Source: an uncultured bacterium
GTDB lineage: Bacteria > Omnitrophota > Omnitrophia > Omnitrophales > Aquincolibacteriaceae
Reading direction: 5' to 3'
DNA: 64,000 nt
Assembly (NCBI GenBank): GCA_964482725.1
Contig: CAYZYT010000001.1
Coordinates: forward strand, 270,912 to 334,911
Position 1 is the first letter of the stretch, and each line of letters opens with the position of its first letter. The notes under the pieces are model-generated. The model was not told where the DNA came from and searched no databases. It saw only the letters and a program-made list of their open reading frames with translations. Shown one piece after another: positions 16,812 through 58,415 of this stretch. The position numbers were made by a program, and so were the translations under genes.

Positions 16812-16880
16812 GTCATCCCCGGAAGCTTTCATCGGGGATCTAGCAAATGGATTCCCGACAAAAGCATTCGGGAATGACAT
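16812..16880. repeat. copy 1 of ~66-bp bipartite palindromic MITE-like element (termini GTCAT...ATGACAT)
   Basis: gtcatccccggaagctttcatcggggatc + ggattcccgacaaaagcattcgggaatgacat; two hairpins. Near-identical copies at 31120-31187 and 50790-50853. Confidence 0.6.
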
Positions 16881-23004: not shown

Positions 23005-23760
23005 TTACATCATGCCCTTTAAAAGATCGTCTATCTTTTCCAAAAGATCATTTTCGTTGCGATGGAGGATGATCCGTTCCCCTGAAAAAGTTTTTAGAGC
23101 CTCCCCGGAAAGTCTCTCTTCGCAGTAAACAAAAAAAGACACCTCGCTAAGCAAGGGGTGCCCCTCAAGTTTCTCTTTGAGTTTCCGAGCGTCGACAAGG
23201 CTTTCATCCTCCCAGAATTGGCAAAAAACATGGGCGGCATTGAGCTGCTTTGTTAGATGAAAGGCATCGTCCTCGTTCAGAGCGACAAAGGCCTGAAAAC
23301 CACGCTCTTGGATCGCCGTTTGGATCTTACTGAGGAGATCCTCCTGAACGCCAAGGATCACCACGCGCTTGGAACCATCCGGGTTCTGCTCCGCACTTTT
23401 CCACAAGAGCCTTTCTATTTTAGAGAGTAAGGCCTTAATCTCGTACGGTTTCGGCATGAACTCCACACTATTAAGATCCGTAAAAAATTCCCGCATACTC
23501 GCTTTTGCTGACATAGCAAGCACCGGAATCTTCCGTAAGGCTTCAATCTCGCGGATCTTTTGAAGGGCTTCATAGCCGGTCATTTTCGGCATCATCACAT
23601 CCATCACAATAAGATCCGGTTTTTGGGATTGGGCCATGGCCAACGCCTCGGCTCCATCCTGGGCCGTACAAACCTCATAGCCAGACGCCGAGAGTTGCTT
23701 GGTCAGTAGCGCCACAACGGTCGGGCTATCATCTACAACAAGGATCTTTCTAGCAGGCAT
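23005..23760 (-). CDS. response-regulator receiver (REC) protein with C-terminal degenerate pseudo-receiver-like domain, paralog 1 of 4
   Basis: REC motifs KILVVDDSP...DLIVMDVMMPKMTGYE...IPVLAMSAK. C-terminal ~125 aa with conserved CQFWED / YCEERL. Start taken at MPARKILVVDD by analogy with paralogs. Confidence 0.75.
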   Translation of the reverse strand: MPARKILVVDDSPTVVALLTKQLSASGYEVCTAQDGAEALAMAQSQKPDLIVMDVMMPKMTGYEALQKIREIEALRKIPVLAMSAKASMREFFTDLNSVEFMPKPYEIKALLSKIERLLWKSAEQNPDGSKRVVILGVQEDLLSKIQTAIQERGFQAFVALNEDDAFHLTKQLNAAHVFCQFWEDESLVDARKLKEKLEGHPLLSEVSFFVYCEERLSGEALKTFSGERIILHRNENDLLEKIDDLLKGMM

Positions 23761-23846
23761 GATCTTGTCAGCTCCTTTTTCATCATTCACTTAAAAGCAT
23801 CCACTCGACATGGGACCCTCGCGGACAAACAGCGGCAGGCCTAACA

Positions 23847-24599
23847 TTATTTTTCTTTAAAAAGCTCGCCTATCTTCTTCAAAAGATCCGCTTCATTGCG
23901 ATGAGACACAACCTGATCCTCCGTAAAAGTTTTTAGAACCTCTCCGAAAAGTCTCTCTTCGCAGTAAACAAAAAAAGATACCTCGCTAAGCAAGGGGTGC
24001 CCCTCAAGTTTCTCTTTGAGTTTCCGAGCGTCGACAATACTCTCATCCTCCCAGAATTGGCAAAAAACATGGGCGGCATTGAGCTGCTTTGTGAGATGAA
24101 AGGCATCCTCCTCATTCAGCGCCTTAAAAGTCTGGAACCCAAGCGCATTGACCAACATTTGAAGTTTATTGGTAAGAGCCTCCTGGACGCCAAGAAACAC
24201 CACTCTCCTAGAACCATCCGGATCCCTCTTTTCGCTCTCCCAAAGAAGCCTTTCGATCCTGGCGAGCAAGGTCCGGATCTCATACGGCTTCAGCATGAAC
24301 TCTACGCCGTTAAGGTCCGTGAAAAAAGCCCCCATGTTCTTATTGGCGGAGAGGATGATCGCAGGAATTTTTCGAAGCTCCTCCGCATCGCGCACTTTCT
24401 GAAGGACTTCATAACCGGTCATTTTCGGCATCATGACATCCATCACGATAAGATCCGGTTTTTGAGCTCTCACTGCGCCCAAAGCCTCGGCTCCGCCCGC
24501 GGCCGTACAAACCTCGTAACCCGACGCCATGAGCTGTTGGGTCAGGGTAGCTACAATCGTCGGGCTATCATCCACGACAAGGATCTTTTTAGAAGGCAT
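23847..24599 (-). CDS. REC + pseudo-receiver protein, paralog 2 of 4
   Basis: Same architecture. DNA 23941-24120 is ~95% identical to 23101-23280 (offset 840 bp). Confidence 0.75.
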   Translation of the reverse strand: MPSKKILVVDDSPTIVATLTQQLMASGYEVCTAAGGAEALGAVRAQKPDLIVMDVMMPKMTGYEVLQKVRDAEELRKIPAIILSANKNMGAFFTDLNGVEFMLKPYEIRTLLARIERLLWESEKRDPDGSRRVVFLGVQEALTNKLQMLVNALGFQTFKALNEEDAFHLTKQLNAAHVFCQFWEDESIVDARKLKEKLEGHPLLSEVSFFVYCEERLFGEVLKTFTEDQVVSHRNEADLLKKIGELFKEK

Positions 24600-24688
24600 G
24601 TCTTTAAAAACTCCTCATGAATCATTACTTCGAACGGCTTGGTCAGAAGGGGGTCGACGCGAAAAAACAGCTGCGGCCTAGTACCGTG

Positions 24689-25441
24689 TTACATTTCCTT
24701 AAAAAGGTCGGCAAGCTTTTCCAAAAGCTCGTTCTCATCACTGTAAATAATGACCCGTCCGTCTGCAAAAGTCTTCCGAGCCTCGCCGGAAAGCCTCTCT
24801 TCGCAATAAACATAAAAGGGTACTTCGCTAAGCAACGGGTGCCCTCCGAGCTTTTCTTTGAGTTTGTGAACATCGCCCCCTCCCGCATCCTCGCAGAATT
24901 GGCACAAGATATTCCCGGGATTCAGCTGCTGCGCCAGATGGAAGGCATCCTCCCCGTTCAGCGCAATAAAAGCCTGAAAACCAAGCCCCTGGATCGCCAT
25001 CTGGAGCCTTTGGGTAAGAGCCTCTTGGCCCCCAAAAAGCACCACTCGCTTGTAACCATCCGGGCTCTGCTCCTCGCTTTCCCAAAGAAGCCTTTCTATC
25101 CTGGAGAGTAAGATCCGGGTCTCATACGGCTTCGGCACAAACTCTACGCCATGAAGGTCCGTGAAAAATTCTCGCATACTCGGCTTTGCTGAAATAATAA
25201 TCGCGGGAATTTTCCGAAACGCATCCGTTTCTCGGATCTTTTGGAGCGCTAGATAGCCGGTCATTTTCGGCATCATCACATCCATCACAATAAGATCCGG
25301 CTTCTGCGACTGCACCATCACCAAGGCCTCGGCTCCATCCACGGCCGTACAAACCTCGTAGCCGGACGCAGTCAGCCGCTTGCCAAGGATCGCCACAAGA
25401 TTCGGATCATCATCCACCAGAAGGATCTTTTTGGATGCCAT
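24689..25441 (-). CDS. REC + pseudo-receiver protein, paralog 3 of 4
   Basis: MASKKILLVDDDP...DLIVMDVMMPKMTGY; C-terminal CQFCED...YCEERL. Confidence 0.75.
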   Translation of the reverse strand: MASKKILLVDDDPNLVAILGKRLTASGYEVCTAVDGAEALVMVQSQKPDLIVMDVMMPKMTGYLALQKIRETDAFRKIPAIIISAKPSMREFFTDLHGVEFVPKPYETRILLSRIERLLWESEEQSPDGYKRVVLFGGQEALTQRLQMAIQGLGFQAFIALNGEDAFHLAQQLNPGNILCQFCEDAGGGDVHKLKEKLGGHPLLSEVPFYVYCEERLSGEARKTFADGRVIIYSDENELLEKLADLFKEM

Positions 25442-25460
25442 GCCTATTTAAAACTCCGCT

Positions 25461-26213
25461 TCATGACTCCTTTAAAAACTCGCTTATCTTATTTAAGAGC
25501 TCTTCCTTGTCGCGATACATAATGATCCGCCCCTCCACAAAAGATTTGCGAGCTTCAACCACGATTCTCTCTTCGCAATAAACATAAAGAGGCACCTGTT
25601 TTAGCAGAGGATGGGTCGCCAGTTTTCCTTTGAGCTTTTGGGCGCTCAGGATGCTTTCATCCTCCCAGAACTGGCACAAGATATTCCCGGGGGTCACCTG
25701 CTGCGCCAGCTGGACAGCATCCTCCTCGTTCAGTGCGATAAAAACCTGAAAACCGAGCGAACGGGCCAGCATTTGGATCTTATTGGTAAGAACCTCCTGG
25801 ACTCCCAAAAGCACCATCCGTTTTGAACCATCCGGATTCTGCGTTTCGCTTTCCCACAGAAGCCTTTCCACCTTGGACAGAAGTACCCGAGGATCATACG
25901 GTTTGGGGACAAAATCAATAAAGGGACGGTCCTTAAAAAATTCCCGCATACTTCCTTTGGCTGAAATAATGATCACCGGGATCTTCCGCCATTCATCCCG
26001 CTTGCGGATCATTTCAAGGACCTCATAGCCGGTCATCTTCGGCATAAGGACATCCAGAATAATAAGGGCGGGCTTTTCCGATCCCATCTTCGCGAGAGCT
26101 TCTTCCCCGTTCATGGCGGTGGAAACCTCATACCCGGAAGACATGAGTCGCTGTGCCAGGACGGCCACGATATCCGGGTCATCATCCACTACGAGGATCT
26201 TTCTAGATCGCAT
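25461..26213 (-). CDS. REC + pseudo-receiver protein, paralog 4 of 4
   Basis: MRSRKILVVDDDP...LIILDVLMPKMTGYE; C-terminal CQFWEDES...YCEERI. Confidence 0.75.
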   Translation of the reverse strand: MRSRKILVVDDDPDIVAVLAQRLMSSGYEVSTAMNGEEALAKMGSEKPALIILDVLMPKMTGYEVLEMIRKRDEWRKIPVIIISAKGSMREFFKDRPFIDFVPKPYDPRVLLSKVERLLWESETQNPDGSKRMVLLGVQEVLTNKIQMLARSLGFQVFIALNEEDAVQLAQQVTPGNILCQFWEDESILSAQKLKGKLATHPLLKQVPLYVYCEERIVVEARKSFVEGRIIMYRDKEELLNKISEFLKES

Positions 26214-31119: not shown

Positions 31120-31187
31120 CGTCATTCCCGCGAAAGCGGGAATCCAGAAAGAGTCTGGATCTCCGACAGAAACATCCGGGGATGACA
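31120..31187. repeat. copy 3 of bipartite palindromic MITE-like element
   Basis: gtcattcccgcgaaagcgggaatcc + ggatctccgacagaaacatccggggatgacat; hairpin order inverted relative to copies 1 and 2. Confidence 0.6.
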
Positions 31188-31198
31188 TAAAATCATGG

Positions 31199-42732: not shown

Positions 42733-42947
42733 ATTCCCTCCAAGATCAACAGGGACAGGTCTGCTTTGCACTCCTAGACCAGTCCCTAAAAAAAAGTGAC
42801 AGTCACCAGTAAAAGTGACTGCCACCAACAATGTTAGGCCTGTTCGAAGTCAACAGGGACAGGTCTGCATTGCACTCCTAGACCAGTCCCTTATTCCCTC
42901 CAAGACCAACAGGGACAGGTCTGTTATTCCTTCCAAGACCTGTCCCT
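42733..42947. repeat. hairpin-repeat family 1, locus A: 3 units of ~56 bp (spacer attccctccaagaYcaac + hairpin agggacaggtctg-N13-agaccWgtccct)
   Basis: Hairpins at 42751-42787, 42855-42891, 42911-42947. Lies between autotransporter stop (42962) and the terminator, i.e. in its 3' UTR. A 66-bp insert with small palindromes gtgacagtcac / gtgactgccac between units 1 and 2. Confidence 0.7.
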
Positions 42948-42961
42948 GAAAAAACGAGGTG

Positions 42962-45900
42962 CTAGAAATCGTACCGAACGGTGCCGTAATAGGTATTGCT
43001 CATGTACTGGTCCTTGAGCTCGATATCCCAATTCCCGGTCATCGTCATGTTCCCTTTATTCAGAAACGCGAGTTCCGCGCCGAAGAGCATCCCGCTCTTC
43101 GCCGGCTTGGCGCCCTGGGTGTTGAAGGAACTCCCGCCGCCCGCAAAACTGGCCGTCGTTTCGAACCGGTCTCCAATATAATCATAGAGCCAGGCCGCCT
43201 TCGCAGAAGGAATGAACGTCCCGACCTTCTTCGCGACCAAGGGATACGCCAGCTTCGTCCCAAGCCCCTGCTCCAGCTGATGGAACCCTTCCCCATTCAC
43301 GGTCAGATTCAGCGAATCCGCGCCCTTTTCCTTATACTTGTTCATGTAAAGATAGTTGTAGCCCAACGACACGAACGGCGTCACCTCCAGTGCCTTCGTC
43401 TTCTCGAAAACGAACTTATAGCCCGTCTCGAAATTCGTCGAATACTGCTGGCCCGCATGGTCCGCTTTCGCGACGCGCCCCGAAGTCGGCGTCACCCAGA
43501 TCTCGCGCCGGCTTTCGTAATCATTTTGCGTGAAAGCCGCCATCCCGTCCACATACCACGAATTCTCGACTTGGCTGCGCACCGCTTCATACGACCTTTT
43601 CCCGCTCTGGCGTGCCTTGTTGAGATCCAGCGAATCGAAACTCCCGTAGATCGTCGCCTGATAACTATTGATATCATCCGAGGGACTCCCCGCGGTCTTC
43701 GATTTCACACGCGCCCAGCCAAAACTCCCCGCGAAACCCGCACGGAAATGATCATCCAGCACTTTATCCGCGCCGACGGTCGTCCCGAACAGATTCCCCA
43801 TGTAGCCTTCGATCCCTTTGCGCGCGTCCTGCTTGATGTGACTCCCAAGCGCCTGCATCCAGACACCGACCCCGTCGAGCCTTTCTCCGCTTGAAACGCC
43901 GGAACCCGAACCCCCGCCGTTACGCGCGCCGCCCAACCGGTTGCCGATCGTCGTGAATCCCTGACTCGTCAGTGAACGGCTCCCCTCCGCCGCCCCCGAA
44001 CTCACGTCAGGATGCATCGTGTCCAACGCCTCGTTATATTCAGAATCCGAGAGTCCGCCCAGCATGTCCAGAACATTGTTCATATCGAACCCCGGATTGG
44101 TAATCCCGGCAAGAACCCCGGCCACTGCCGCGGCGTTGCCTGACGCTCCCGGAGCAGGCGCGAAATCGTTGGACGAAGTCAACACCAGATCCCCGCTATC
44201 CTCGCTTGCCGCAAACTTATAACGACGCGTACTGCTCGTGGTCGTCGGAACAATGTTGCCGACGCCGAAACTGCTCGCATCGATGACCGTGAATTCCGTA
44301 CCTGGCATGATCGAAAGCCCGGAATTAACCGTCACATGGACTTTGCTCCCGGCTTCCAACGTCGTCTTATCTCCCTCAATAACGAGACCGTTCTGATCGG
44401 CACTGGCACCATAAATGGTCAGCCCCAGGGTCCCACCTTTTAGATTAAATTCTTCTCCGACATTCAAGGTGTTCTCACCGACCGTCACATTGTAGGTATG
44501 AAGATCCCCAGTGATCGTCGCATCAGAATTCCCCGTAAGATTCACTGCTTTCGGAGCACCGCTACTGCCTCCAACGTCCCCGGTAAGGATAGTGGCGCCT
44601 TCAAAAATCAGCGTCCCGGTGCCGTCAGTGAGCATTGAAACGTTAGCAGTAATGTTATATCCGCCAGCCATTTTCACAAAACCGTCGCCATTAAAGTAAA
44701 GCGCGTCAGTTGCCGTCAGATCTCCGTTCATTTGCAACGTCCCGGTCCCCACCACAGCATCATAGGCATAAATATCGCCGTTGACCGCGGCATCCTCTCC
44801 GTTGAAATAAACCAACTTAAGAACCTCGCTGTCTGTACCTATATCTCCATTAACGGTAGCATTGGCGTTAAAGGTCACGCTCCCATAGATGTTCCAATCG
44901 GTTTTGATGCCGTTACTCTCCTCTGAGGGAGCCTCGGCCTTCCCAATCGTCGCGTTATCGTTGAACGTGACCTCTGGATTTGTACGCTCCTCCGCACCGT
45001 GCGGGCTGGATTTCAACCTCAGATAATCGAGATAAACATCCGCGTTGAAAGTCGTGTCCTTGTGGACGCTTACGGTGGAAAGATACGCATCGCTCGAGCC
45101 TACTTGTCCCTCCACGGTCGCGCTTTCCTTAAAAACGACTTTCCCGAGGTCTGCCCCTTCGCTCGTGATCGTAATACCACCGTCCCCGATAGAAGCGTCG
45201 CCATAAAATACGACGGAGGTGCTGGCGCCACTCCCGGTAAAATTCAAACTGTCAACATAGACGTCATAAACAGGGGCATCTACGGTATCGATATCGTTTC
45301 CAAGGTGAACTGTATGCCCCCCCTCAGTAACATTGATCGCCTTAAGATATTTCCCGGAGATGTCCCCATCCGCAGCTTCGCCGATCTGTTTTGTCACAAC
45401 GCCATCGCCGCTGAAAGTAAGCGTTCCCTGACCGTCATGCTGGGTCTTGATTGGATGATAGATCCATTCATTGTCTCCCAAGATCACTTCCCCGTCGTCC
45501 GTGAAGATCAAGGTTGAGTTCGGTGTGCCAGGCTCATAAAACGACCCGTTTAATTCCAAAGTCCCGGCGCCAACGTACATATCGGTCGCATAAACATCGC
45601 CGGTGATCGCGACTGTCGTGAGCGAACCCCCTTGCAGATCGATAAGCTTCAACGCATCCGTGCCATTACCGATCTGCCCATCGACCGTGCCATACCCTTC
45701 GAAAGTCAGGGTGCCTTCATTATCGTTTTGGGAAGTGATATTAGAAGTGATGGTATGACCATCTTCCAAAATCACTTCGCCGTCATCGGTAAAAGTAAGC
45801 GTTTCTTCGGATGTTGTGGTCAGATCGCCGTTCATCTGCAAGATTCCGGCTCCAACGTAAACGTCATTCGCCCAAAGGTTACCATTGATCGTGACCGTCG

Positions 45901-48900
45901 TCCCCTTGGCGCCATCGATGTTCACTTCACTTAAAGCCGCATCACTCGTACCAATAGCATCCTGGTAAGCGTCTTCAATAAGCTCTCCTGTAACCGTGGC
46001 GTTGCCGTTAAAATTCACGATCCCATAGCCGTCGTACTCGGTCGTGATGCCGCTTTCCCCGATATAGGCGTCCGCATTAAATGTGGCTTCTGCGTCTTCC
46101 CTCGTGCTGCTGAATTTCAACTCATCCACATAAACATCACTATTAAAAGTCGTTTGGCGATCCGCGCGTATCCTGCCAAGATATGCATCAGCTGCGCCGA
46201 CCTGGCCGTCAATGGTCGCATCGCGCTTAAAAGCGACGATCCCATGCCCGGCCCAATCAGTCGTAATACCACCTTCCCCGATATAAACCACCGCTGCGTC
46301 CTTGAACGTAACCGTTGAATCGTCCCCGGGGCCTCCCATTCCTTCAAATGCCAACTCCTCAATATAAACAGGGCTATATAACTTGACGTCATAATTACTG
46401 TCAGCAGCCTGTGTAACAATAATCTTGGAAAGGGACGCTCCCTCCTCGCCAACCTGCCCGGTAACTTCACCATCCCCTTCAAAAGTCAGCGTACCCTGGC
46501 CGGAAGCAGTGACGTTTCCGTCAATATCAACGCCATTGGCCAATTTCAATACGGCATCACCCGAAAAGTTGTACAGGGGTGAATCCTGGGTCGCGGTCAG
46601 ATAAAGCGTCCCGGCATTGATCGTGGTCCTCCCGCTGTAAGTATTCTCATTGGTGAAGACCACTTCGCCCGTACCGGACTTGGTGAGCGAACAAGAAAGT
46701 GAGTCCGTGTCGTAATCTTCAATGAGGGAATTGACAGTGAACGTGCTGCCTGAAAAATTGGTCAGGATCAACTCCCCGCCGTCGGTAGCCGCGGTCAAAG
46801 TCCCGACCCCGCCCTCGGATCCCGTGTCACCCAACGTCAGGGCGGTCGAGAGAGAACCTGCGAGAATGCCGCTTGTTTGCAACGTGTAGCCATCAAAGTC
46901 GACTGTCACCGGTGCATCTTCGGCGCTCTGGTTGAGCGTGTTGATGGGGGTCAGATCATCAAGAATGTACGCTCCGCCCTCGGTGATTTGGACATTACTG
47001 GTCGCATCACTAGGGCCGATGGGGGTGTAGCCCGTGTACGCCACGATATTGCCGTCTTCATCGACAGTCGCCCAATCTGTGCCATCTACGGTGGCCCAAG
47101 CGCCGAGGATGCCGTTGACATTTTCCCGGGTGGTCATGATCGAGTTGTACTCATCATCTTGTGTCCCGACAAAATTGATCGTCGCGCCTGTGTTGCGTTC
47201 GATATTTCCAAGATCTAAGCCGAGAGAATTTTCATCGTTCGAAAGCTCTATCGTCGAAGCGCCACTATTGAGTCTCAATCCGTCGAAATCCTGATAATTA
47301 TTGTCAGAAGATGATCCCGTGAGAAGCAGCTTTCCACCCCAGAGCCCTAAGGATGACTCCGCAGAAATGATGTCAACATTCGTAGCCGCCGTCGCGAAAT
47401 CCAGATTCAGCGTGCCCGCGACGAGTCGTGTGTCACCGGTATATTCGTTGCTACCGCTTAAAGTGAGCTCTCCCTCGCCATATTTCCCAAGATTATAAAC
47501 CCCGATGATGCCACCGCTGATCGTTAGAGTACTGCCGCTATCCACCTCAATCCCAGCATTGCCGGCAAGCATGATATCTCCAGCCCAGCTGTTGTCCCCG
47601 CTTGCACTATAAAGAGCTCCCTTGGAAAGATCCGAGGGACCGTCCAGCGTCAATGCCACATCGCCAATAACGATATCGTCTCCACCGTTGCTGTCGAGCT
47701 TGAGAATGCCGCCGTCAGCAACCTCAACGCTGTCGGTCTCTCCTAAAGCGTTGCTGTTAGTGATCGTGAGGGTGCCTTCATTTATATAGGTCGCGCCGGT
47801 GTAGCTGTTCTCGCCGTTCAAGATCACTTCCCCGACGCCGGACTTGACCAGGGATGAAGACGCGACCGGATCCGTCCATTCATCGATAGAAGCATTGATC
47901 GTGAGATTCCCGAGAGTGCTGTTATTGATAAGGACTATTTCGCCATTCTCCGTTGCGGCATACAGGGAACTGTCATCTGGTTCCACGCCTAGCGTCAGCG
48001 AACCCATGCCCTCACCAATCATGATGCCATTGACATCAAGAGCCTTTTCGTCTCCTGACGCTATGTCAACAGTCGCTGCGGCTGCTGTATTTTGCAAGAG
48101 AGTATTGATCGTGAACCAATCACTCGGATCCGTAGTCGCTCCCAAAGTGATTGGCGCGCCCGCCTCCCCCGCAGCAGTATTGATTCGAACATTCGTGTTC
48201 GCTCCGTCGGTGATCACACTGCCATAGGCATCGATGTCCGTATAGTCGGTGTAGGCCGTGATATTCGTTTCATCACCATTGGATGAACCAACTGCCCAGT
48301 CGGTCCCGCCGACAGTGGCCCACGCGCCCAGAATGCCGCTTGCAAGGTTTTCCGTGGTGGTGGTCGCGATATTTTCCGCTCCAAAGTTAATCACACCACC
48401 GGTCCGGATAATTCCGTTCATTCGGAGGGTCGTTCCTTCGCCACCATCGTCAATGGTCTGAATGATATTGTTGGCGCCGCCGGTGATCCTGACCGATGCA
48501 ACAGCTTCCACGTATTCGCCGTTGTGGAGCTCAAGCGTACCCCCGCTCATCCACAGATCGCTCCCGGACAATTTCGAAGTCTCGTAGTCGCTATAATCCA
48601 GCTTAAGCGTGCCAGCTTCCAACCAGGAGTTGGCTCCGAAGCTGATATTTTCGCCGCTTAATGTAAACGTTCCCACATCAGCTTGATCAATTTCGCCCTC
48701 GATATCGATGTTTCCAGAAATAAGGGTTTCGCCGGAACCCCAAACGCCCAAAGAATTATTTCCCGAGATATCACCCGTGAGTCTAAGAGTGCTTCCGTAG
48801 TCGGCGCCCACCCACGATGCGACATCCACACCGTCCAACGATATATTGCCAGTCCAGCTGTTGTCCCCACTTGCGCTCCAAAGGGCTGCCCCGTCTACGG

Positions 48901-50698
48901 AAGGCCCATATCCGGAAATTGACAAATCCTTACCCTCTATGGAAATATTGTCTTGAAGATCCAACTCCGCGCCGTAGGCAACCTCAACATCTCCCCCGAT
49001 CCCCAAGGCGCCGTCGCTCGTGGCAACAAGAATGCCTTCATTAATATAAGTCGCGCCGGTGTAGGTATTGTCGCCAGTGAGCGTCAGAGTCCCTTCGCCG
49101 GATTTGGTCAGGCCGATGTCGTCACCGTTATCTTGAATCACCGATCCAATCGTCAGATCGTTGTCTGTGTTGTTCTGGATGATCACCAGGTCTGCACCGC
49201 TGGCTCCTTGAAGATAGCCGCCGGTGATGGTGGAAAGATTATCGCCGACATTGCCGGTAACGAGAATGCCGCCGGAGGAAATGATATTTTCCCCAGTCAA
49301 AGTGAGCGTGTATTCGCCCTCATCGTTGAAGCGCAGGCTGTTAGGCGTGATCTCCCCCTCCGGAGTCTGTGTGCTGTCCACGCTAATGTCTGCACCGTCA
49401 TAGCTGGCCGCATCATCTTCAACGTCTGAGGTGTAGGTATAGTCTCCGGAATCAAGCGCAGTAATTTGCCCGACATCGGCACCGTCTCCCGCGCTAATCG
49501 CCCAGTCCGTCCCACCAACCGTCGCCCAACCGCCCAAAATGGTATTCGCCGTGTTGGCCGTCATAGTCGTAATACCGTTGACAACGGGATCATTCACCAC
49601 GATTGGAAGTGTAAAATCGACCGTGCCGCCGGCATCGCGGCTGATCTCTCCGAGATTCAGTAAAAGATCATTTGCGCCTACACTGTTATCAAGCGTGATC
49701 GCGGAAGCACCGCTATTGATTGTTATTCCATTGTCAAAGGTCTGGATGTTCGCGTCCGAACCGCCTGTGAGCAGCAGTGTCCCACCGTTGAGCTCCAAAT
49801 CCGTACCACTGTCGAGAATGTCATCCTGAACATTGTCCGCCGAAAAATCGAGATTCAGCGTCCCTCTATTGAGCGTCACGGTGTTGGCATCAACCTCATC
49901 TTGAAAAGTTACGGTCGTTCCGCCGCCGCCGTTCACGTTAATGGTCCCAAACTTGTCACCATCCAAACCGATAGCACCTGTGACAGTGGCGTCATTCTCA
50001 AATATTAAAGTTCCGGTATTATCATCGTTATAGGTGTCGACCGTTCCAAGAATGGCTGTGCCGCCGATCCGGATCTCGCCATCGCCCTCAAAATTTAAGG
50101 CATCAGCATAAATGTCCCCGTCGAAAATCACCGTCCCGGCGTTAATGTTCATTTCTGAAAGAGATTGCCCTTCGGCCCACATATCACCAGTAAATGTGGC
50201 AGAGCCCAAAAAATTAAGCGTTCCGGCAGAGCTATCACCGCCAATCAACAGATCCGTAACAAAAGAGTGCCCATCTGCAAGATTCAGTACATTGGCCGCG
50301 CCATCGCCTGTGAATTGCATACGGGAACCCGAAGTAAAATCAATATCTCCATCGATCGTCACGGTAGCAACGCCTGAAGTGCCAAGATCGATGCGATAAC
50401 CCGAGCTATCATCGGTCAAATCTCCGGTAAATGTGTTGGTTCCGGCAAATACCAGGATCCCGTTCTCCCCCGTCAGTGTCGCCGTGCCAATGTTAGGATT
50501 TGTAGCATCCTCCACATCCATCCAGCCGCTTATGCTTGTTGCATTATCTGCGCCCGTTAAGGGCCCAGATGGAACAGGCGACCACGATCCAGCCGTCCCC
50601 CACTCACCACCTGTTGATGTATAGTCTGCCGCAAACGCGGGCGTCACAGGTGAGAAAACGAGGGAAAGGATCGCAACGATGGACAGGAGTTTTTTCAT
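42962..50698 (-). CDS. giant autotransporter (type Va) protein with multiple autotransporter-associated beta-strand repeats and C-terminal beta-barrel translocator
   Basis: Start at MKKLLSIVAILSLVFSPVTPAFA (ATG 50698), not ORF start 50761. At least four PATR-type repeats (e.g. LTKSGEGTLTLTGDNTYTGATYINEGIL). C-terminal ~280 aa barrel ending ...YGTVRYDF. 2578 aa. Confidence 0.85.
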   Translation of the reverse strand: MKKLLSIVAILSLVFSPVTPAFAADYTSTGGEWGTAGSWSPVPSGPLTGADNATSISGWMDVEDATNPNIGTATLTGENGILVFAGTNTFTGDLTDDSSGYRIDLGTSGVATVTIDGDIDFTSGSRMQFTGDGAANVLNLADGHSFVTDLLIGGDSSAGTLNFLGSATFTGDMWAEGQSLSEMNINAGTVIFDGDIYADALNFEGDGEIRIGGTAILGTVDTYNDDNTGTLIFENDATVTGAIGLDGDKFGTINVNGGGGTTVTFQDEVDANTVTLNRGTLNLDFSADNVQDDILDSGTDLELNGGTLLLTGGSDANIQTFDNGITINSGASAITLDNSVGANDLLLNLGEISRDAGGTVDFTLPIVVNDPVVNGITTMTANTANTILGGWATVGGTDWAISAGDGADVGQITALDSGDYTYTSDVEDDAASYDGADISVDSTQTPEGEITPNSLRFNDEGEYTLTLTGENIISSGGILVTGNVGDNLSTITGGYLQGASGADLVIIQNNTDNDLTIGSVIQDNGDDIGLTKSGEGTLTLTGDNTYTGATYINEGILVATSDGALGIGGDVEVAYGAELDLQDNISIEGKDLSISGYGPSVDGAALWSASGDNSWTGNISLDGVDVASWVGADYGSTLRLTGDISGNNSLGVWGSGETLISGNIDIEGEIDQADVGTFTLSGENISFGANSWLEAGTLKLDYSDYETSKLSGSDLWMSGGTLELHNGEYVEAVASVRITGGANNIIQTIDDGGEGTTLRMNGIIRTGGVINFGAENIATTTTENLASGILGAWATVGGTDWAVGSSNGDETNITAYTDYTDIDAYGSVITDGANTNVRINTAAGEAGAPITLGATTDPSDWFTINTLLQNTAAAATVDIASGDEKALDVNGIMIGEGMGSLTLGVEPDDSSLYAATENGEIVLINNSTLGNLTINASIDEWTDPVASSSLVKSGVGEVILNGENSYTGATYINEGTLTITNSNALGETDSVEVADGGILKLDSNGGDDIVIGDVALTLDGPSDLSKGALYSASGDNSWAGDIMLAGNAGIEVDSGSTLTISGGIIGVYNLGKYGEGELTLSGSNEYTGDTRLVAGTLNLDFATAATNVDIISAESSLGLWGGKLLLTGSSSDNNYQDFDGLRLNSGASTIELSNDENSLGLDLGNIERNTGATINFVGTQDDEYNSIMTTRENVNGILGAWATVDGTDWATVDEDGNIVAYTGYTPIGPSDATSNVQITEGGAYILDDLTPINTLNQSAEDAPVTVDFDGYTLQTSGILAGSLSTALTLGDTGSEGGVGTLTAATDGGELILTNFSGSTFTVNSLIEDYDTDSLSCSLTKSGTGEVVFTNENTYSGRTTINAGTLYLTATQDSPLYNFSGDAVLKLANGVDIDGNVTASGQGTLTFEGDGEVTGQVGEEGASLSKIIVTQAADSNYDVKLYSPVYIEELAFEGMGGPGDDSTVTFKDAAVVYIGEGGITTDWAGHGIVAFKRDATIDGQVGAADAYLGRIRADRQTTFNSDVYVDELKFSSTREDAEATFNADAYIGESGITTEYDGYGIVNFNGNATVTGELIEDAYQDAIGTSDAALSEVNIDGAKGTTVTINGNLWANDVYVGAGILQMNGDLTTTSEETLTFTDDGEVILEDGHTITSNITSQNDNEGTLTFEGYGTVDGQIGNGTDALKLIDLQGGSLTTVAITGDVYATDMYVGAGTLELNGSFYEPGTPNSTLIFTDDGEVILGDNEWIYHPIKTQHDGQGTLTFSGDGVVTKQIGEAADGDISGKYLKAINVTEGGHTVHLGNDIDTVDAPVYDVYVDSLNFTGSGASTSVVFYGDASIGDGGITITSEGADLGKVVFKESATVEGQVGSSDAYLSTVSVHKDTTFNADVYLDYLRLKSSPHGAEERTNPEVTFNDNATIGKAEAPSEESNGIKTDWNIYGSVTFNANATVNGDIGTDSEVLKLVYFNGEDAAVNGDIYAYDAVVGTGTLQMNGDLTATDALYFNGDGFVKMAGGYNITANVSMLTDGTGTLIFEGATILTGDVGGSSGAPKAVNLTGNSDATITGDLHTYNVTVGENTLNVGEEFNLKGGTLGLTIYGASADQNGLVIEGDKTTLEAGSKVHVTVNSGLSIMPGTEFTVIDASSFGVGNIVPTTTSSTRRYKFAASEDSGDLVLTSSNDFAPAPGASGNAAAVAGVLAGITNPGFDMNNVLDMLGGLSDSEYNEALDTMHPDVSSGAAEGSRSLTSQGFTTIGNRLGGARNGGGSGSGVSSGERLDGVGVWMQALGSHIKQDARKGIEGYMGNLFGTTVGADKVLDDHFRAGFAGSFGWARVKSKTAGSPSDDINSYQATIYGSFDSLDLNKARQSGKRSYEAVRSQVENSWYVDGMAAFTQNDYESRREIWVTPTSGRVAKADHAGQQYSTNFETGYKFVFEKTKALEVTPFVSLGYNYLYMNKYKEKGADSLNLTVNGEGFHQLEQGLGTKLAYPLVAKKVGTFIPSAKAAWLYDYIGDRFETTASFAGGGSSFNTQGAKPAKSGMLFGAELAFLNKGNMTMTGNWDIELKDQYMSNTYYGTVRYDF

Positions 50699-50789
50699 GG
50701 GAATCATGTGGGGGAAATCTCCGTTTTGTTTTGAGAGAGAAAGGCTTGCGACTTTTTTCAAAATTGGGGTTGACCCCTATTTTTTCACT

Positions 50790-50853
50790 GTCATCCCCGC
50801 GAAGGCGGGGATCCATGCTCCGGATTCCCGATAGAAGCATTCGGGAATGACAT
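50790..50853. repeat. copy 2 of bipartite palindromic MITE-like element, 92-155 bp upstream of autotransporter start
   Basis: gtcatccccgcgaaggcggggatcc + atgctcc + ggattcccgatagaagcattcgggaatgacat. Confidence 0.6.
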
Positions 50854-50963
50854 GCGACGGAAAGAATCGATATGGATAAAACCAATCAGCCCAAAGACTT
50901 ACGGCATAAAACTTACAACCTTGATGGGGCGAATTCTACCTTCACGGCTGGAAAGGCGCAACC

Positions 50964-51029
50964 TTTTTTCCTTCTTTTTTCCTTCTTTTTTCCTTCTTTT
51001 TTCCTTCTTTTTTCCTGCTTTTTTCCTGC
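50964..51029. repeat. simple-sequence repeat: 11-bp unit ttttttccttc x4 plus ttttttcctgc x2
   Basis: Read directly. Lies in divergent promoter region between autotransporter (minus; start 50698) and small secreted-protein gene (plus; start 51229). Confidence 0.85.
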
Positions 51030-51228
51030 TGCCCCCAAAAGATATCCCGAGCCTTTTTTCCCCAAGATTCGGCCCGAACTCGACCGCCGGTCAAGGATGG
51101 ACGCGATGCCTGGGATCGATCCTGAACTTCATGATGTCTTACGCTTATAAAGGAAGCTCGGTCCAGGAGAACCCCCTCGGGGCGACCGGTCGGGAGAACG
51201 CCGGCGATATGGTATAATCCCGCTCGAG

Positions 51229-51504
51229 GTGACTCCTATGAAAAAACTTGTGGCAGTTTCAATGTTTGGAATGTTGTTCCTTTCGCTCGCGCTTCCCCTT
51301 TCGGGGGCGGCAGAGGACGACGCAACGGGAACGGGGATGAGCGGGACTTCGCAGGAATTGGCGGATCTTCAGAAAACGATGAGAAGTGAACGCATGGATA
51401 ATCTTGAGCAGAGCGTCGCCGAGATGAAACAAGCGATCAGTTCCCTCTCCGATCGTGTCCAGGATCTGGAACGGACCGTGGATGATTTCAACGGCCGGCA
51501 GTAA
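51229..51504 (+). CDS. small secreted coiled-coil protein (hypothetical)
   Basis: Signal peptide MTPMKKLVAVSMFGMLFLSLALPLSGAA. GAGG-type RBS. Its 3' ~100 bp plus downstream 40 bp are duplicated at 53668-53808. Confidence 0.5.
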   Translation: MTPMKKLVAVSMFGMLFLSLALPLSGAAEDDATGTGMSGTSQELADLQKTMRSERMDNLEQSVAEMKQAISSLSDRVQDLERTVDDFNGRQ

Positions 51505-51536
51505 GCACTGTTAAGAACGCTTTCCCTCCCGCTATC

Positions 51537-51685
51537 AGGGACAGGTCTGCTTCGCAGTCTTAGACCTGTCCCTAATTCCCTCCAAAACCCACAGGGACTG
51601 GTCTGCTTCGCACTCCTAGACCTGTCCCTTATTCCTTCCAAAACCCACAGGGACTGGTCTGCTTCGCAGTCTTAGACCTGTCCCT
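51537..51685. repeat. hairpin-repeat family 1, locus B: 3 tandem units (hairpins 51537-51573, 51593-51629, 51649-51685)
   Basis: agggacWggtctgcttcgcaStcYtagacctgtccct with spacers aattccctccaaaacccac / tattccttccaaaacccac. Confidence 0.7.
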
Positions 51686-51758
51686 GTGTTAACGAGACGC
51701 CGTCCGCGACTCGCAATTCATAGTGTCCGTTTTTCAATAGGGCTGATGTGTGTTTTAC

Positions 51759-51787
51759 TTGATTTATGTGTATCCACGTATTATACT
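51759..51787 (+). promoter_or_regulatory. near-consensus sigma70-type promoter TTGATT-N17-TATACT, followed by AAGGAGG RBS (51799-51805) and ATG 51811
   Basis: Hexamers and 17-nt spacer read directly. Confidence 0.45.
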
Positions 51788-51810
51788 CATAGTAAGAAAA
51801 GGAGGCTATT

Positions 51811-52029
51811 ATGCCAAACATGACGCTCTCGATACCGGCAGAATTGAAGATGAAAATGGACCGCTTTAAGGAGATCAACTGGTCCGAAGTCGCGAGGCAG
51901 GCTATTTTTCAAAAGACCCTGCTCATGGACAAGATGAACCAGATGATGTCCTCCAGCAAGATCAGCGAGCCGGAAACCCTGTACGCGGCCCGTAAGATCA
52001 GCCGCAAAGTCTCCCAAAGACACAAGTAG
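51811..52029 (+). CDS. ribbon-helix-helix-like small protein (putative antitoxin/regulator)
   Basis: N-terminus MPNMTLSIPAELKMKMDRFKEINWSEVARQAI fits RHH beta-strand + two helices. Strong promoter and RBS. Confidence 0.45.
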   Translation: MPNMTLSIPAELKMKMDRFKEINWSEVARQAIFQKTLLMDKMNQMMSSSKISEPETLYAARKISRKVSQRHK

Positions 52030-52036
52030 CACCCCT

Positions 52037-52288
52037 ATGGAACTGGTCGTCGACGCGAACGTCCTTCTCGCGGGCTTCATGAAAGCGGCTGTAACGCGGG
52101 AACTTCTTCTGGACAATCGCTTGAAATTGCACGCTCCGGAGCACTTGATCTATGAAACCCGGAAACACCTTTTGAGCAGCTCCCGGCTTCGAAAGCGTAT
52201 CAGCCTGTTGCCCAAGCAGATCGAGGAGATATGGTTCATCCTCACGCAAAACATCGAATCCCACGCGCCCGCAAGCCTCAATAATTGA
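52037..52288 (+). CDS. PIN-like N-terminal fragment (83 aa; probably truncated VapC-like toxin)
   Basis: MELVVDANVLLAGF resembles PIN N-terminal motif (first conserved Asp). Length too short for a complete PIN domain. Confidence 0.35.
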   Translation: MELVVDANVLLAGFMKAAVTRELLLDNRLKLHAPEHLIYETRKHLLSSSRLRKRISLLPKQIEEIWFILTQNIESHAPASLNN

Positions 52289-52341
52289 TTATTGGTAAAC
52301 ATATGATTGATTTATAATAAATGTTGTGATAGCGTATCCTC

Positions 52342-53358
52342 ATGAAGAACATGCTAAAAAAAAGAGGGCTTTATTCACGCGTCAGAAAGATCCTGGCGCA
52401 GGCGCGCTTAAGGGTGGCTCGTGCGATCAATACCGAGATGGTCCGGGCCTATTGGATGATCGGACGCGAGATCGTCGAAGAGGAACAAAAGGGAGAAGCG
52501 CGCGCCGGATACGGGCAAAAAATCCTGGAAACTCTTTCCGGACGTCTGGCGAATGGGTTTGGCGAGGGAGTTGATGCCAGCAATTTGTGGAATATGCGTA
52601 AGTTTTATCAAACCTATCCAATTCTCGACGCAGTGCGTCTAGAATTGAGCTGGACCCACTATCGTATCTTGATACGGGTTGACTCCCCCCAAGCGCGATC
52701 GTTCTATGAGATCGAATGCATCAAAAGCAACTGGTCGGCCCGGGAACTTGAACGTCAGAAAGGCTCGCTCCTTTTTGAACGGCTTGCCTTATGCAAAGAC
52801 AAAAGAGGGTTGATGAAATTAGCCCGAAGAGGACAGAAGCTTCAAACCTATAAAGACATGATCAAGGACCCGTATGTTCTGGAATTTACGGGCCTACCCT
52901 CTCGCTCCAAACTCTATGAAAGCCACCTGGAGCAGGCGCTTATTGAAAATCTCTCGAAATTTCTGTTGGAATTGGGGAAGGGGTTCACCTTCGTTGCGCG
53001 TCAAAAACGCATTACCCTGGAGGGCGATCATTTTTATATTGACCTGGTGTTCTACAACACGATCCTGAAATGCTTTGTGCTCATTGACCTAAAGATCGGC
53101 AAGCTCGCGCATCAAGACATCGGGCAGATGCAGATGTATGTGAACTATTACGACCGGAAATTAAAGGGATTGGATGATAACCCCTCGGTCGGTCTGATCC
53201 TTTGTGAGGATAAAAAGGAAGCGGTCGTGAGATACACTTTGCCGCATGGGGAAAAGCGGATCTTTGCTTCCAGATATAAGCTTCATTTGCCTACGGAAAA
53301 AGAGTTAAAGCAAGAACTGGCGCGGGAAAGACCGTTGCTGATCGCCTCTCAGGCATAA
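52342..53358 (+). CDS. DUF1016 / YhcG-family PDDEXK nuclease-like protein
   Basis: DLVFYNTILKCFVLIDLKIG...GQMQMYV core; C-terminal ...YKLHLPTEKELKQEL motif. Confidence 0.7.
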   Translation: MKNMLKKRGLYSRVRKILAQARLRVARAINTEMVRAYWMIGREIVEEEQKGEARAGYGQKILETLSGRLANGFGEGVDASNLWNMRKFYQTYPILDAVRLELSWTHYRILIRVDSPQARSFYEIECIKSNWSARELERQKGSLLFERLALCKDKRGLMKLARRGQKLQTYKDMIKDPYVLEFTGLPSRSKLYESHLEQALIENLSKFLLELGKGFTFVARQKRITLEGDHFYIDLVFYNTILKCFVLIDLKIGKLAHQDIGQMQMYVNYYDRKLKGLDDNPSVGLILCEDKKEAVVRYTLPHGEKRIFASRYKLHLPTEKELKQELARERPLLIASQA

Positions 53359-53410
53359 AACAACATATCCAAAAACTCGCACCGCTGGTGCGAGAAATAG
53401 GCTGAACTAA

Positions 53411-53515
53411 GCATTCCATGTCGCCACTTACCGGATCACTTCCCGTCTTCCCCACGAACTAAAAAAAGAGCTGCCGGGGCCGGAGCAGATCGCCTATCTT
53501 CTCGAAAAGATCTGA
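53411..53515 (+). pseudogene. 3' remnant of a further DUF1016-family gene
   Basis: Own translation: ...VATYRITSRLPHELKKELPGPEQIAYLLEKI*. Matches the C-terminal motif of both DUF1016 proteins (...YK..LP.E.ELK.EL...). In-frame stop immediately upstream, no start codon. Confidence 0.35.
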
Positions 53516-53559
53516 CCGCCGTTCCGACGAAACCCATAGGTGTTGGAACGGAGGATTTC

Positions 53560-53766
53560 ATGCTGCAACTTACGCCCGGAGAAGCCCGCTCTTTAAGGTC
53601 GCAAATTGCGCCCTTAAAGAAACGAGCTCGCGGAGGACATCGAAAATACCTTCCCTACGCCTTTACGGAGCAGAGCGTCGCCGAGATGAAACAAGCGATC
53701 AGTTCCCTCTCCGATCGTGTCCAGGATCTGGAACGGACCGTGGATGATTTTAATGGCCGGCAGTAA
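53560..53766 (+). pseudogene. chimeric ORF whose last 33 codons duplicate the 3' end of 51229..51504
   Basis: DNA 53668-53808 ~96% identical to 51406-51546. N-terminal part unrelated (MLQLTPGEARSLRSQIAPLKKRARGGHRKY). Confidence 0.3.
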
Positions 53767-53823
53767 GCGCTGTTAAGGACGCTTCCCCTCCCGCTATCAG
53801 GGGCAGTCACCGGCGTGACAACA

Positions 53824-53860
53824 GGGACAGGTCTGCTTCGCATGCCTAGACCTGTCCCTG
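53824..53860. repeat. hairpin-repeat family 1, locus C (single unit) preceded by small palindrome gtcaccggcgtgac
   Basis: agggacaggtctgcttcgcatgcctagacctgtccct. Confidence 0.65.
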
Positions 53861-53906
53861 AAAAAAAGAATCCAAAAAAAAGTAACTGTCACCAACAATG
53901 CGGGGA

Positions 53907-57208: not shown

Positions 57209-58415
57209 CCGTTTTGTCTCCCTGGGCTTCGGCGCTTGCTTTTTCTTTAGGCCTAAACGGTTCCACCAGAATCGCCCCAAGCTTGCCAAGTCCATGCGTC
57301 ACTTGCCCCGGCGTGCTCGCTGCGATCTTAACGGTTCCGGTGATACCCGCCTTGGTCTTCGAGAGCAAAGCCTTTTGGAGAGCTTTGGTGAAGGCGCTGT
57401 AAAATCGGAACTTGGGATCTTCGATATAACCATCTACTTTGATATTCAATTCCACAGCTTTCTGATCCTCGAGAAGAATTCGGATCGCGCTAAACGGATA
57501 TTTAAGAAGCTTCTGGGCCGCCGTCGGGGCCGCGAACGTCATCGACTTGAGCGTCAGTAAATGCTCCGACCGAAGGTCTCCTTCCACACACAGTAAATGG
57601 GACTTGATATCGTAGGTCCCGGTTTGCACTTCTCCGAGGATCGACGAAAGAAGGAAATCATATTCCGCCACGGAACCATCGGAAATTTGGATATTGACGT
57701 CAAAATTGTCTCCGTCCGCGAATTGACATTTTCCGCCCCCGGTGAAACGAGCAGGAGGATTCATTCCGAACGTGGCATCCACATAGATCGTTTCTGTAAA
57801 AGTCGGGCTGGTATAATCCGAAAGGAAATCAAAGCCAGTCCAATACCCCTTGATATGCTCAAAGATCCAGCGCCGTTCTTCGACATCGCGTCGGTCATCA
57901 AAAATGAGCGACCCTTTTTCAAGTTCCAAACGATCGATCCGAACACGCCACGAATCCTCGCCGACATTGTCCGGATGAGGCATCGCCCGCGGCGGGAGCG
58001 GCGGCCCGTCCACATCAAGCCCCATGTTGTGATACCAATGCGTCACATTGGTCCGCGACCCCTCAGGCGTCATGTAGCTCTCGATCGCGAATACGACTTC
58101 TTTAAAATGAGCTTTTCGGATCCGGATGAATTTGTTCTTAAGCACCCTGAGGTCCAGCTCGCACTCGATCCCTTTGCAGGTAAAATGGTCGCGCCTTTTG
58201 AACCCCGGGGGATTGAGGATCTCCAGCTTTCCAACACTCACGCGAGAAAAAAACGGGGAAATGCGCATCCCTTCGATGTGGACCGGCATGTCAAAAACCC
58301 GGGTCATCACTTTTTCTAAAAAGGGCTCAGCCGCCATCCCCAGGAGCCGGGCATGCACCATCCCAAGGATCCCCAGCCCGATCAAAATGAAAAAAAGAGG
58401 TCTTAACTTCTTCAT
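57201..58415 (-). CDS. membrane-anchored hypothetical protein (AsmA-like/DUF748-like; uncertain)
   Basis: Signal anchor MKKLRPLFFILIGLGILGMV; 404 aa. Operon position between AKR and era. Confidence 0.45.
   Translation of the reverse strand: MKKLRPLFFILIGLGILGMVHARLLGMAAEPFLEKVMTRVFDMPVHIEGMRISPFFSRVSVGKLEILNPPGFKRRDHFTCKGIECELDLRVLKNKFIRIRKAHFKEVVFAIESYMTPEGSRTNVTHWYHNMGLDVDGPPLPPRAMPHPDNVGEDSWRVRIDRLELEKGSLIFDDRRDVEERRWIFEHIKGYWTGFDFLSDYTSPTFTETIYVDATFGMNPPARFTGGGKCQFADGDNFDVNIQISDGSVAEYDFLLSSILGEVQTGTYDIKSHLLCVEGDLRSEHLLTLKSMTFAAPTAAQKLLKYPFSAIRILLEDQKAVELNIKVDGYIEDPKFRFYSAFTKALQKALLSKTKAGITGTVKIAASTPGQVTHGLGKLGAILVEPFRPKEKASAEAQGDKTDA

Follow-up and report, generated by a model that had tools for sequence, protein, structure and literature searches.

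An 11-bp tandem array of phased A-tracts beside a candidate promoter of a giant autotransporter gene in an uncultured Omnitrophota bacterium

Introduction

Phased A-tracts are present upstream of the promoter of the Clostridium perfringens plc gene. More generally, upstream A-tracts are credited with activation through alpha-CTD (Aiyar, Gourse and Ross 1998; Estrem et al. 1998), and upstream activators based on phased A-tracts or bending have been treated by Perez-Martin et al. 1994, all of these as represented by their citation in PMC4081817. In Helicobacter pylori, a T-tract near the -35 element of sabA works as a slippage-driven rheostat by way of UP-like A-boxes and DNA structure (Aberg et al. 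2014, PMC4081817), and this is backed by transcription start site (TSS), reporter and SPR data as well as by in vivo length variation. In Neisseria meningitidis the effect of the TAAA tract of nadA is mediated by flanking NadR operators and IHF (Metruccio et al. 2009, PMC2791445). The promoter repeats of Haemophilus influenzae hmw1A and hmw2A have a unit of 7 bp and a graded output (Dawid et al. 1999, as cited in PMC2424069), and they are present in 9-28 copies between the promoters and the start codon, with changes of +/-1 on passage.

Here we describe a simple-sequence repeat (SSR) with an 11-bp unit, located in the spacer between a giant autotransporter gene and a divergent gene for a small secreted protein. 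Throughout, the window denotes the whole 64-kb stretch of DNA that was analysed, and the coordinates of the features discussed are collected in Table 1.

Table 1. Features of the array locus, in window coordinates
Feature	Position	Strand	Description
Giant type Va autotransporter gene	42962..50708	minus	signal peptide, PATR-repeat passenger, C-terminal beta-barrel
MITE-like double-hairpin element	50790..50853	no strand	inverted termini; between candidate promoter and autotransporter start
Candidate sigma-70-type promoter	50933..50961	minus	-35 TTGCGC (50961-50956), 17-bp spacer, -10 TAGAAT (50938-50933)
11-bp tandem array	50964..51029	no strand	TTTTTTCCTTC x4 + TTTTTTCCTGC x2
Extended -10 box TGGTATAAT of small-gene promoter	51210..51218	plus	predicted TSS ~51225
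88-aa secreted coiled-coil-like protein gene	51238..51504	plus	ATG 51238; 44 homologues

Results

The array is the only sizeable simple repeat of the window

Read exactly on the plus strand, the array consists of four units of TTTTTTCCTTC followed by two of TTTTTTCCTGC, corresponding to two units of GCAGGAAAAAA followed by four of GAAGGAAAAAA on the minus strand, which is the coding strand of the autotransporter. The repeat given in a preliminary description of this DNA is thereby confirmed to the letter, and it is likewise returned by Tandem Repeats Finder (50963-51027, period 11, 5.9 copies, 98% matches, score 123) as the highest-scoring short-period tandem repeat in the window. A degenerate 11-mer pattern occurs six times against 0.33 expected in 64 kb, and all six occurrences are perfectly tandem, head to tail. 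With 5.9-6 units of 11 bp at 98% identity the array is a near-perfect simple-sequence tandem tract of the kind by which contingency loci are recognized. It holds six helically phased T6/A6 tracts, has an AT content of 64-73% in a genome of ~52% GC, and overlaps a homopyrimidine run of 55 nt on the plus strand (50962-51016). A regex scan of the window returned no other notable SSR, the sole other perfect one being CACGGT x3, and no homopolymer of more than 8 nt; furthermore, neither RNA families (Rfam) in the spacer or the window nor tRNAs in the window were found. In conclusion, the array is a genuine, non-random feature, and the window contains no other simple repeat of appreciable size.

Several other roles were considered for the array and its surroundings and set aside. 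A coding role is at odds with the fact that the ORFs spanning the array (50852-51217 and 50872-51150) are disrupted by a 55-bp length difference in the closest related lineage, and a role as dispersed regulatory motif is ruled out since the 11-mer core was not found in other intergenic regions of the window and recurs inside ORFs only. That the SSR itself supplies promoter hexamers was ruled out by inspection. With regard to H-DNA, the homopyrimidine run forms only an imperfect mirror repeat, and a sigma-54 promoter at AGGAAAAAAGGTTGC, which was judged by eye, would retain GG-N10-GC and TTGC while its match to the -24 box is poor.

The unit number differs between two very close lineages

The closest lineage, referred to as the sister, is represented by three independent samples, namely ENA ERZ27250635 (L009), JGI 3300029286 (L010) and Logan SRR8536342 (L020). 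Its prfC fragment is identical to that of the window in 260 of 263 residues, and the DNA flanking the locus is ~94.5% identical between the two. At the orthologous site all three sister contigs read gcaacc-CTTTTTCCCGC-ttcccc, i.e. one unit where the window has six, and the unit number has evidently changed by five between very close lineages, two lineages being compared. A difference in unit number among related strains, which the preliminary description had suggested looking for, is thereby found.

The sister unit CTTTTTCCCGC resembles the 3' TGC-type units of the array more closely, and together with the arrangement of the units in blocks of four and two this similarity would fit a recent stepwise expansion in the window lineage, although the polarity of the change cannot be rooted since the outgroup has lost the region. 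The spacer as a whole is ~91% identical to that of the sister when gaps are excluded, a near-neutral rate, and it contains many other indels.

In the outgroup, represented by four loci with a prfC 97% identical to that of the window, the gene after prfC is an ORF6N gene, behind which a remnant of the autotransporter gene adjoins PFK. In GCA_037139435.1 (3381-4200, compared with window 42962-43082) this remnant comprises the last ~47 barrel codons, ending in GNWDIELKDKFMSNTYYGTVRYDF and the stop. The small-gene orthologue of this genome is located at another locus.

The exact window prfC is found in the Logan assemblies SRR12261223, SRR12261224 and SRR12261227, which represent the window strain, and the contigs of this strain that were retrieved by way of exact YhcG and prfC break at nearby 56-bp hairpin repeats and never reach the SSR. 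A scan of a genome collection with a 19-mer flank gave only chance matches in unrelated phyla, and a metagenome scan with a 22-mer flank returned the JGI sister contig only.

A candidate autotransporter promoter abuts the array

A relaxed sigma-70 scan of the 539-bp spacer yields one minus-strand candidate only, the putative autotransporter promoter of Table 1. The same scan also recovers the promoter of the small gene and may for that reason be regarded as a fair test, with the reservation that sigma-70 and UP-element rules were derived from E. coli and may not hold in Omnitrophota. The candidate -35 matches at 3/6 positions, and chance alone would give ~1.2 such candidates per strand in a spacer as long as this one; a stricter promoter scan does not list TTGCGC-17-TAGAAT, and the pattern TTG-N20-TANAAT has 4 matches in the window against 1.46 expected. 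In the sister the candidate is retained in the form TTGCGT-17-TAGAAT, with one A5 tract ahead of it where the window has the array.

The distance from the candidate -35 up to the start of the array is 2 bp, and the array thus starts at about -38 relative to a predicted TSS at ~50925-50926. Its A6 tracts (minus strand) then fall at about -38/-43, -49/-54, -60/-65, -71/-76, -82/-87 and -93/-98, so that, relative to the predicted promoter, A/T tracts recur every 10-11 bp directly upstream of the -35. No -35/-10 pair straddling the array was found in the relaxed scan, and since it lies between no such pair the array cannot alter core-promoter spacing.

The array is predicted to be curved and to preserve helical phase

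DNA paths were calculated under three models of dinucleotide wedges (Bolshoy-Trifonov, De Santis and AA-wedge), the parameters of which follow published tables. By the Bolshoy-Trifonov and AA-wedge models no other 60-bp stretch of the 64 kb is as curved as the array (90 and 89 degrees; window mean ~24), and by the De Santis model the array ranks among the top four peaks, the margin over other curvature peaks being small (90 vs 87 degrees in one model). The one-unit region of the sister is much less bent (63, 39 and 56 degrees in the three models). The array is thus in silico an intrinsically curved segment. When the unit number is varied in silico, net deflection is maximal at 5-7 units and then drops as the bends spiral out of plane.

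The summed model twist of one 11-bp unit is 376.6 degrees by arithmetic on the twist table of the model, i.e. about one helical turn with ~+17 degrees to spare, and slippage should preserve the face of the helix for this reason. A change of unit number accordingly shifts neither promoter spacing nor helical phase, nor does it shift a reading frame, the array being non-coding, and in this respect the array departs from what is expected of a contingency locus.

The neighbouring gene encodes a strain-variable autotransporter

The autotransporter gene encodes a protein of 2578 aa with the signal peptide MKKLLSIVAILSLVFSPVTPAFA, PATR repeats (PF12951, E 2.4e-24; four PATR stretches above threshold) and an Autotransporter beta-domain (Pfam PF03797) at residues 2279-2557 (E 2.6e-49), and it thereby combines the signal peptide, passenger and C-terminal 12-strand beta-barrel domain of a type Va autotransporter. 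Two ATG codons may serve as start, namely 50698 and the in-frame 50708 four codons upstream with GGAG 10 nt before it, and the latter is more likely to be the start since its GGAG is better placed. Depending on the start, 50708 or 50698, the array lies 256-266 bp upstream of the ATG.

The passenger domain has ~35% aa identity to that of the sister allele (L009 3-3125, blastp) in spite of the ~94.5% nucleotide identity of the flanking DNA, and in blastn the alignment is confined to roughly the initial 70 nt of the gene, at ~82% identity. The pattern suggests that an allele or cassette of a surface protein has been exchanged, with a breakpoint near the 5' UTR and the MITE. A homologue search with the autotransporter N-terminus returned distant PATR proteins only (<=47% identity) and no orthologous loci. 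All in all the autotransporter is, as judged from these comparisons, a strain-variable surface protein that is present in some members of the clade and lost in others.

The 5' region of the gene also contains a palindromic block, TTTTTTCAAAATTGGGGTTGACCCCTATTTTTT (50754-50786), which is 100% conserved in the sister within surroundings of ~90 bp that are 81% conserved. The block resembles a weak bidirectional terminator or an operator.

The preliminary description had placed the SSR ~270 bp upstream of the start of an autotransporter and ~200 bp upstream of a gene at 51229, with a MITE-like copy between the SSR and the autotransporter. These statements largely hold: the distances measure 256-266 bp and 200-209 bp, the autotransporter is genuine as judged by PF03797, and the MITE-like element is one of three copies and is absent in the sister. 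The gene is moreover strain-variable, with a passenger of ~35% aa identity between flanks of ~94.5% nt identity and a deletion in the outgroup. The position of the SSR in the spacer, next to a genuine autotransporter, stands as well, while the role assigned to it in the promoter region of the small gene does not, as detailed below.

The locus is a structural hotspot

The MITE-like element is found in three copies in the window (50790-50853, 16812-16880 and 31121-31188), which share the inverted termini GTCATYCCCG...CGGGRATGAC(AT). It is absent from the orthologous sister site, where an unrelated stretch of ~30 nt is found instead, and no clear target-site duplication was seen at the element. 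Dispersed short non-coding copies, terminal inverted repeats and a presence/absence polymorphism are the properties by which MITEs are recognized. Furthermore, a 12-bp indel separates window and sister at the autotransporter start codon, and an insertion of ~2.1 kb (51545-53667) that is absent in the sister is bracketed by a 139-bp direct duplication, 96% identical (51406-51544 and 53668-53806), which comprises the 3' end of the small gene and downstream DNA. The insertion carries a gene with an RHH_12 domain, a small ORF and a gene for a YhcG/DUF1016 PD-(D/E)XK nuclease (52342-53358). With its passenger replaced, a MITE and a nuclease cassette inserted and the gene deleted in the outgroup, the locus is evidently a structural hotspot.

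Seven copies of an element of ~50-56 bp with a perfect hairpin stem of ~12 bp (AGGGACAGGTCT...AGACCTGTCCCT) are located at 42747-42956, 51533-51694 and 53819-53868. These hairpin elements are REP-like, form tandem triplets on either side of the block of autotransporter and small gene, and are the places where short-read (Logan) contigs break. Elsewhere in the window, at 23005-26213 on the minus strand, four paralogous genes of ~250 aa are arranged in tandem with a period of ~840 bp and 66-85% nt identity.

The array lies outside the core promoter of the small gene

The small gene starts at ATG 51238, the previously given 51229 being an in-frame GTG, and the end of the array is 200-209 bp upstream of the start (GTG 51229 and ATG 51238, respectively). 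No Pfam family was found for the 88-aa protein, which has 44 homologues at E<=1e-3 with 51-96% identity and variable gene neighbourhoods and belongs to a widespread family that is conserved across Omnitrophota-type MAGs. The closest named homologues of the small protein and of prfC are all labelled Candidatus Omnitrophota/Omnitrophica. Homologues at 77-81% identity are found in unrelated neighbourhoods and their spacers are therefore not orthologous to that of the window, and exact look-ups of the small protein in its 88-, 91- and 80-aa versions found no contig.

When the upstream 75 nt were compared at six loci of five lineages, among them the window and its sister, the DNA was found to be unalignable except for TGnTAyAMT, GAGGTGA and the ATG. 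The motif TGnTAyAMT is conserved at a fixed distance, 7 nt before GAGGTGA-ATG, in all five diverged lineages. Since this phylogenetic footprint fixes the extended -10 box, the small-gene promoter is excluded as the site of the array, which falls at about -196 to -261 relative to the predicted TSS and ~150 bp upstream of the core promoter. The array is thus outside the predicted core promoter and UTR of the small gene, contrary to its earlier assignment to the promoter region of this gene, which is hardly a plausible target. The earlier proviso that the SSR might lie outside promoter and UTR altogether is borne out for the small gene; at the autotransporter the SSR abuts a -35 that is itself predicted.

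A perfect 10-bp palindrome, CGACCGGTCG (51183-51192), overlaps the -35 region of the small-gene promoter and is adjoined by CCCCCTCGGGG (51168-51178); both are conserved in the sister and could together be an operator. A second exact TGGTATAAT is found in the window at 57809-57817 on the plus strand.

Discussion

Comparison with described systems

The sabA tract is, like the array, a slippage-prone T/A-rich tract directly upstream of the -35 of an adhesin gene, and in both cases a graded output through UP-like A-boxes and local DNA curvature is proposed. In sabA, however, the tract is a mononucleotide run in which 1-bp steps rotate the A-boxes and give a multiphasic output, whereas in the array 11-bp steps would keep the phase and change the number of A-tracts. 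Activators of the phased A-tract or UP-element type resemble the array in having A5-6 tracts every 10-11 bp right upstream of the -35 and a predicted static bend, and the proximal tract of the array would overlap the alpha-CTD subsite at -38 to -46. Their tracts, however, are constant in number (usually 2-3) and do not form identical tandem units, whereas the array consists of six such units, which are prone to slippage, at a promoter that is itself predicted.

In nadA, which encodes an adhesin of the autotransporter class, the SSR is likewise upstream of the core promoter, and its unit number changes the spacing of distal elements, but the 4-bp unit alters helical phase where the 11-bp unit keeps it, and the flanking operators and regulator of nadA have no known counterpart at the array. 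NadA is furthermore a trimeric (type Vc) autotransporter, whereas the neighbour of the array is a classical type Va one. The hmw repeats resemble the array in that a multi-base unit (7 vs 11 bp) is repeated upstream of the gene for a large secreted adhesin, with graded expression inversely or monotonically tied to repeat number; they differ from the array, which has 6 units and lies upstream of the candidate promoter and not between promoter and start. The graded 7-bp hmw repeat is the nearest multi-base analogue of the array.

A possible A-tract rheostat

In the reading we favour, a single T-rich 11-mer beside the autotransporter -35 would have been amplified to six copies by replication slippage, or an array would have collapsed to one copy in the sister, and the array is to all appearances a genuine slippage product. 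The expanded array would place phased, curved A6 tracts at the UP-element position of the candidate promoter and may there modulate recruitment of RNA polymerase by way of alpha-CTD/UP-like contacts, of bending of the upstream DNA, or of both. With every step of slippage one A-tract and about one helical turn would be gained or lost, and changes in unit number would then translate into graded, rheostat-like expression of the autotransporter and not into ON/OFF switching, since an 11-bp step keeps the helical phase and any effect should for that reason be graded.

We put the probability of a real regulatory effect of the array through such an A-tract/UP-like route at roughly 0.4. It is favoured because the only minus-strand promoter candidate abuts the array and is kept in the sister with an A5 tract, and because the gene that would be regulated is a hypervariable surface protein, and it is made plausible by the fact that T/A tracts near the -35 act as rheostats at sabA (PMC4081817). 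That the array is in full a contingency element that preserves helical phase, in which slippage of whole A-tracts dials expression of the giant autotransporter up and down, seems on the other hand unlikely.

Alternative explanations

The array may instead be a neutral by-product, i.e. the outcome of slippage that recently expanded a repeat in a spacer under little constraint, within an unstable locus, and with no meaningful effect on either gene. This we consider a serious possibility if somewhat short of an even one, and the fact that the locus is a structural hotspot makes it nearly as likely as the UP-like effect: the same few kb carry the MITE, the 12-bp indel, the replaced passenger, the nuclease cassette with its duplication and the outgroup deletion. 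The spacer identity of ~91%, compared with ~94.5% overall, reveals no extra constraint, the sister manages with one unit, and there is no sign of SSR-based regulation in the organism, to judge from a 64-kb window that is without other SSRs. Nor is the 11-mer core found in other intergenic regions of the window. However, the exact abutment of the array to the sole promoter candidate, together with its phased A6 tracts, makes an effect on transcription physically likely (PMC4081817), and the neighbouring gene is of a class in which variation of this kind is typically selected.

A classical slipped-strand switch, in which promoter spacing or phasing would frequently turn the autotransporter, the small gene or both ON and OFF, agrees with the location of the SSR next to the autotransporter, with the difference in unit number between lineages, and with the control of the adhesins NadA (PMC2791445) and HMW1/2 (PMC2424069) by promoter SSRs. 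Such a switch is nevertheless improbable, since the array is found between no -35/-10 pair, is ~150 bp away from the core promoter of the small gene, has a unit of about one helical turn that leaves phasing intact, and exceeds with its 11 nt the usual range of 1-9 nt, and since other contingency-type SSRs are missing from the window. Slippage should moreover be far rarer in 6 copies of an 11-bp unit than in mono- to tetranucleotide tracts. Two proposals of the preliminary description are not supported. Changes in unit number would not alter promoter spacing or phasing, given that no -35/-10 pair is straddled and that 11 bp keep the phase, and the arrangement is not the classic configuration it was taken for, given that the sabA and nadA tracts shift the phase which the array preserves and that the window is devoid of other SSRs.

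The array might also be a protein-binding or spacing element, such as the direct-repeat site of a regulator, a site for a nucleoid-associated protein with a preference for curved AT-rich DNA, or an operator spacer, that represses or insulates the divergent promoters. The 11-bp period does put all units on one face of the helix, the DNA is relatively AT-rich and by prediction curved, and in nadA it is NadR operators that flank the TAAA tract (PMC2791445). There is however little to recommend this explanation, since the sister has a single unit, meaning that a multi-site operator is not ancestral, since other genes of the window lack the motif in their upstream regions, and since no candidate regulator was identified. 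Finally, it is very improbable that the copy number is an artefact of a short tandem repeat mis-assembled in a MAG, for although the source evidently is a MAG and Logan assemblies of the window strain do fragment at nearby repeats, the array is with its 66 bp shorter than typical reads, its unit variants are cleanly ordered 4+2 between flanks collinear with the sister, and an artefact would change the unit count and not the existence of the repeat.

Conclusions

The array may tune expression of the autotransporter. If it is not functional, the array would be a further trace of rearrangement in a surface-protein locus that rearranges strongly, and of local interest only. To our knowledge, the cases in which slippage tunes the expression of surface adhesins come almost exclusively from host-adapted pathogens with small genomes. 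Should the array be functional, such tuning would extend to an uncultured environmental phylum whose members presumably live attached to other cells or prey on them, and it would do so with a variant logic in which the repeat unit is itself one turn of curved A-tract DNA. The proposed rheostat would, if true, be of a type not described before among SSRs, and Omnitrophota, an uncultivated phylum, would with it gain its first case of stochastic regulation by an SSR.
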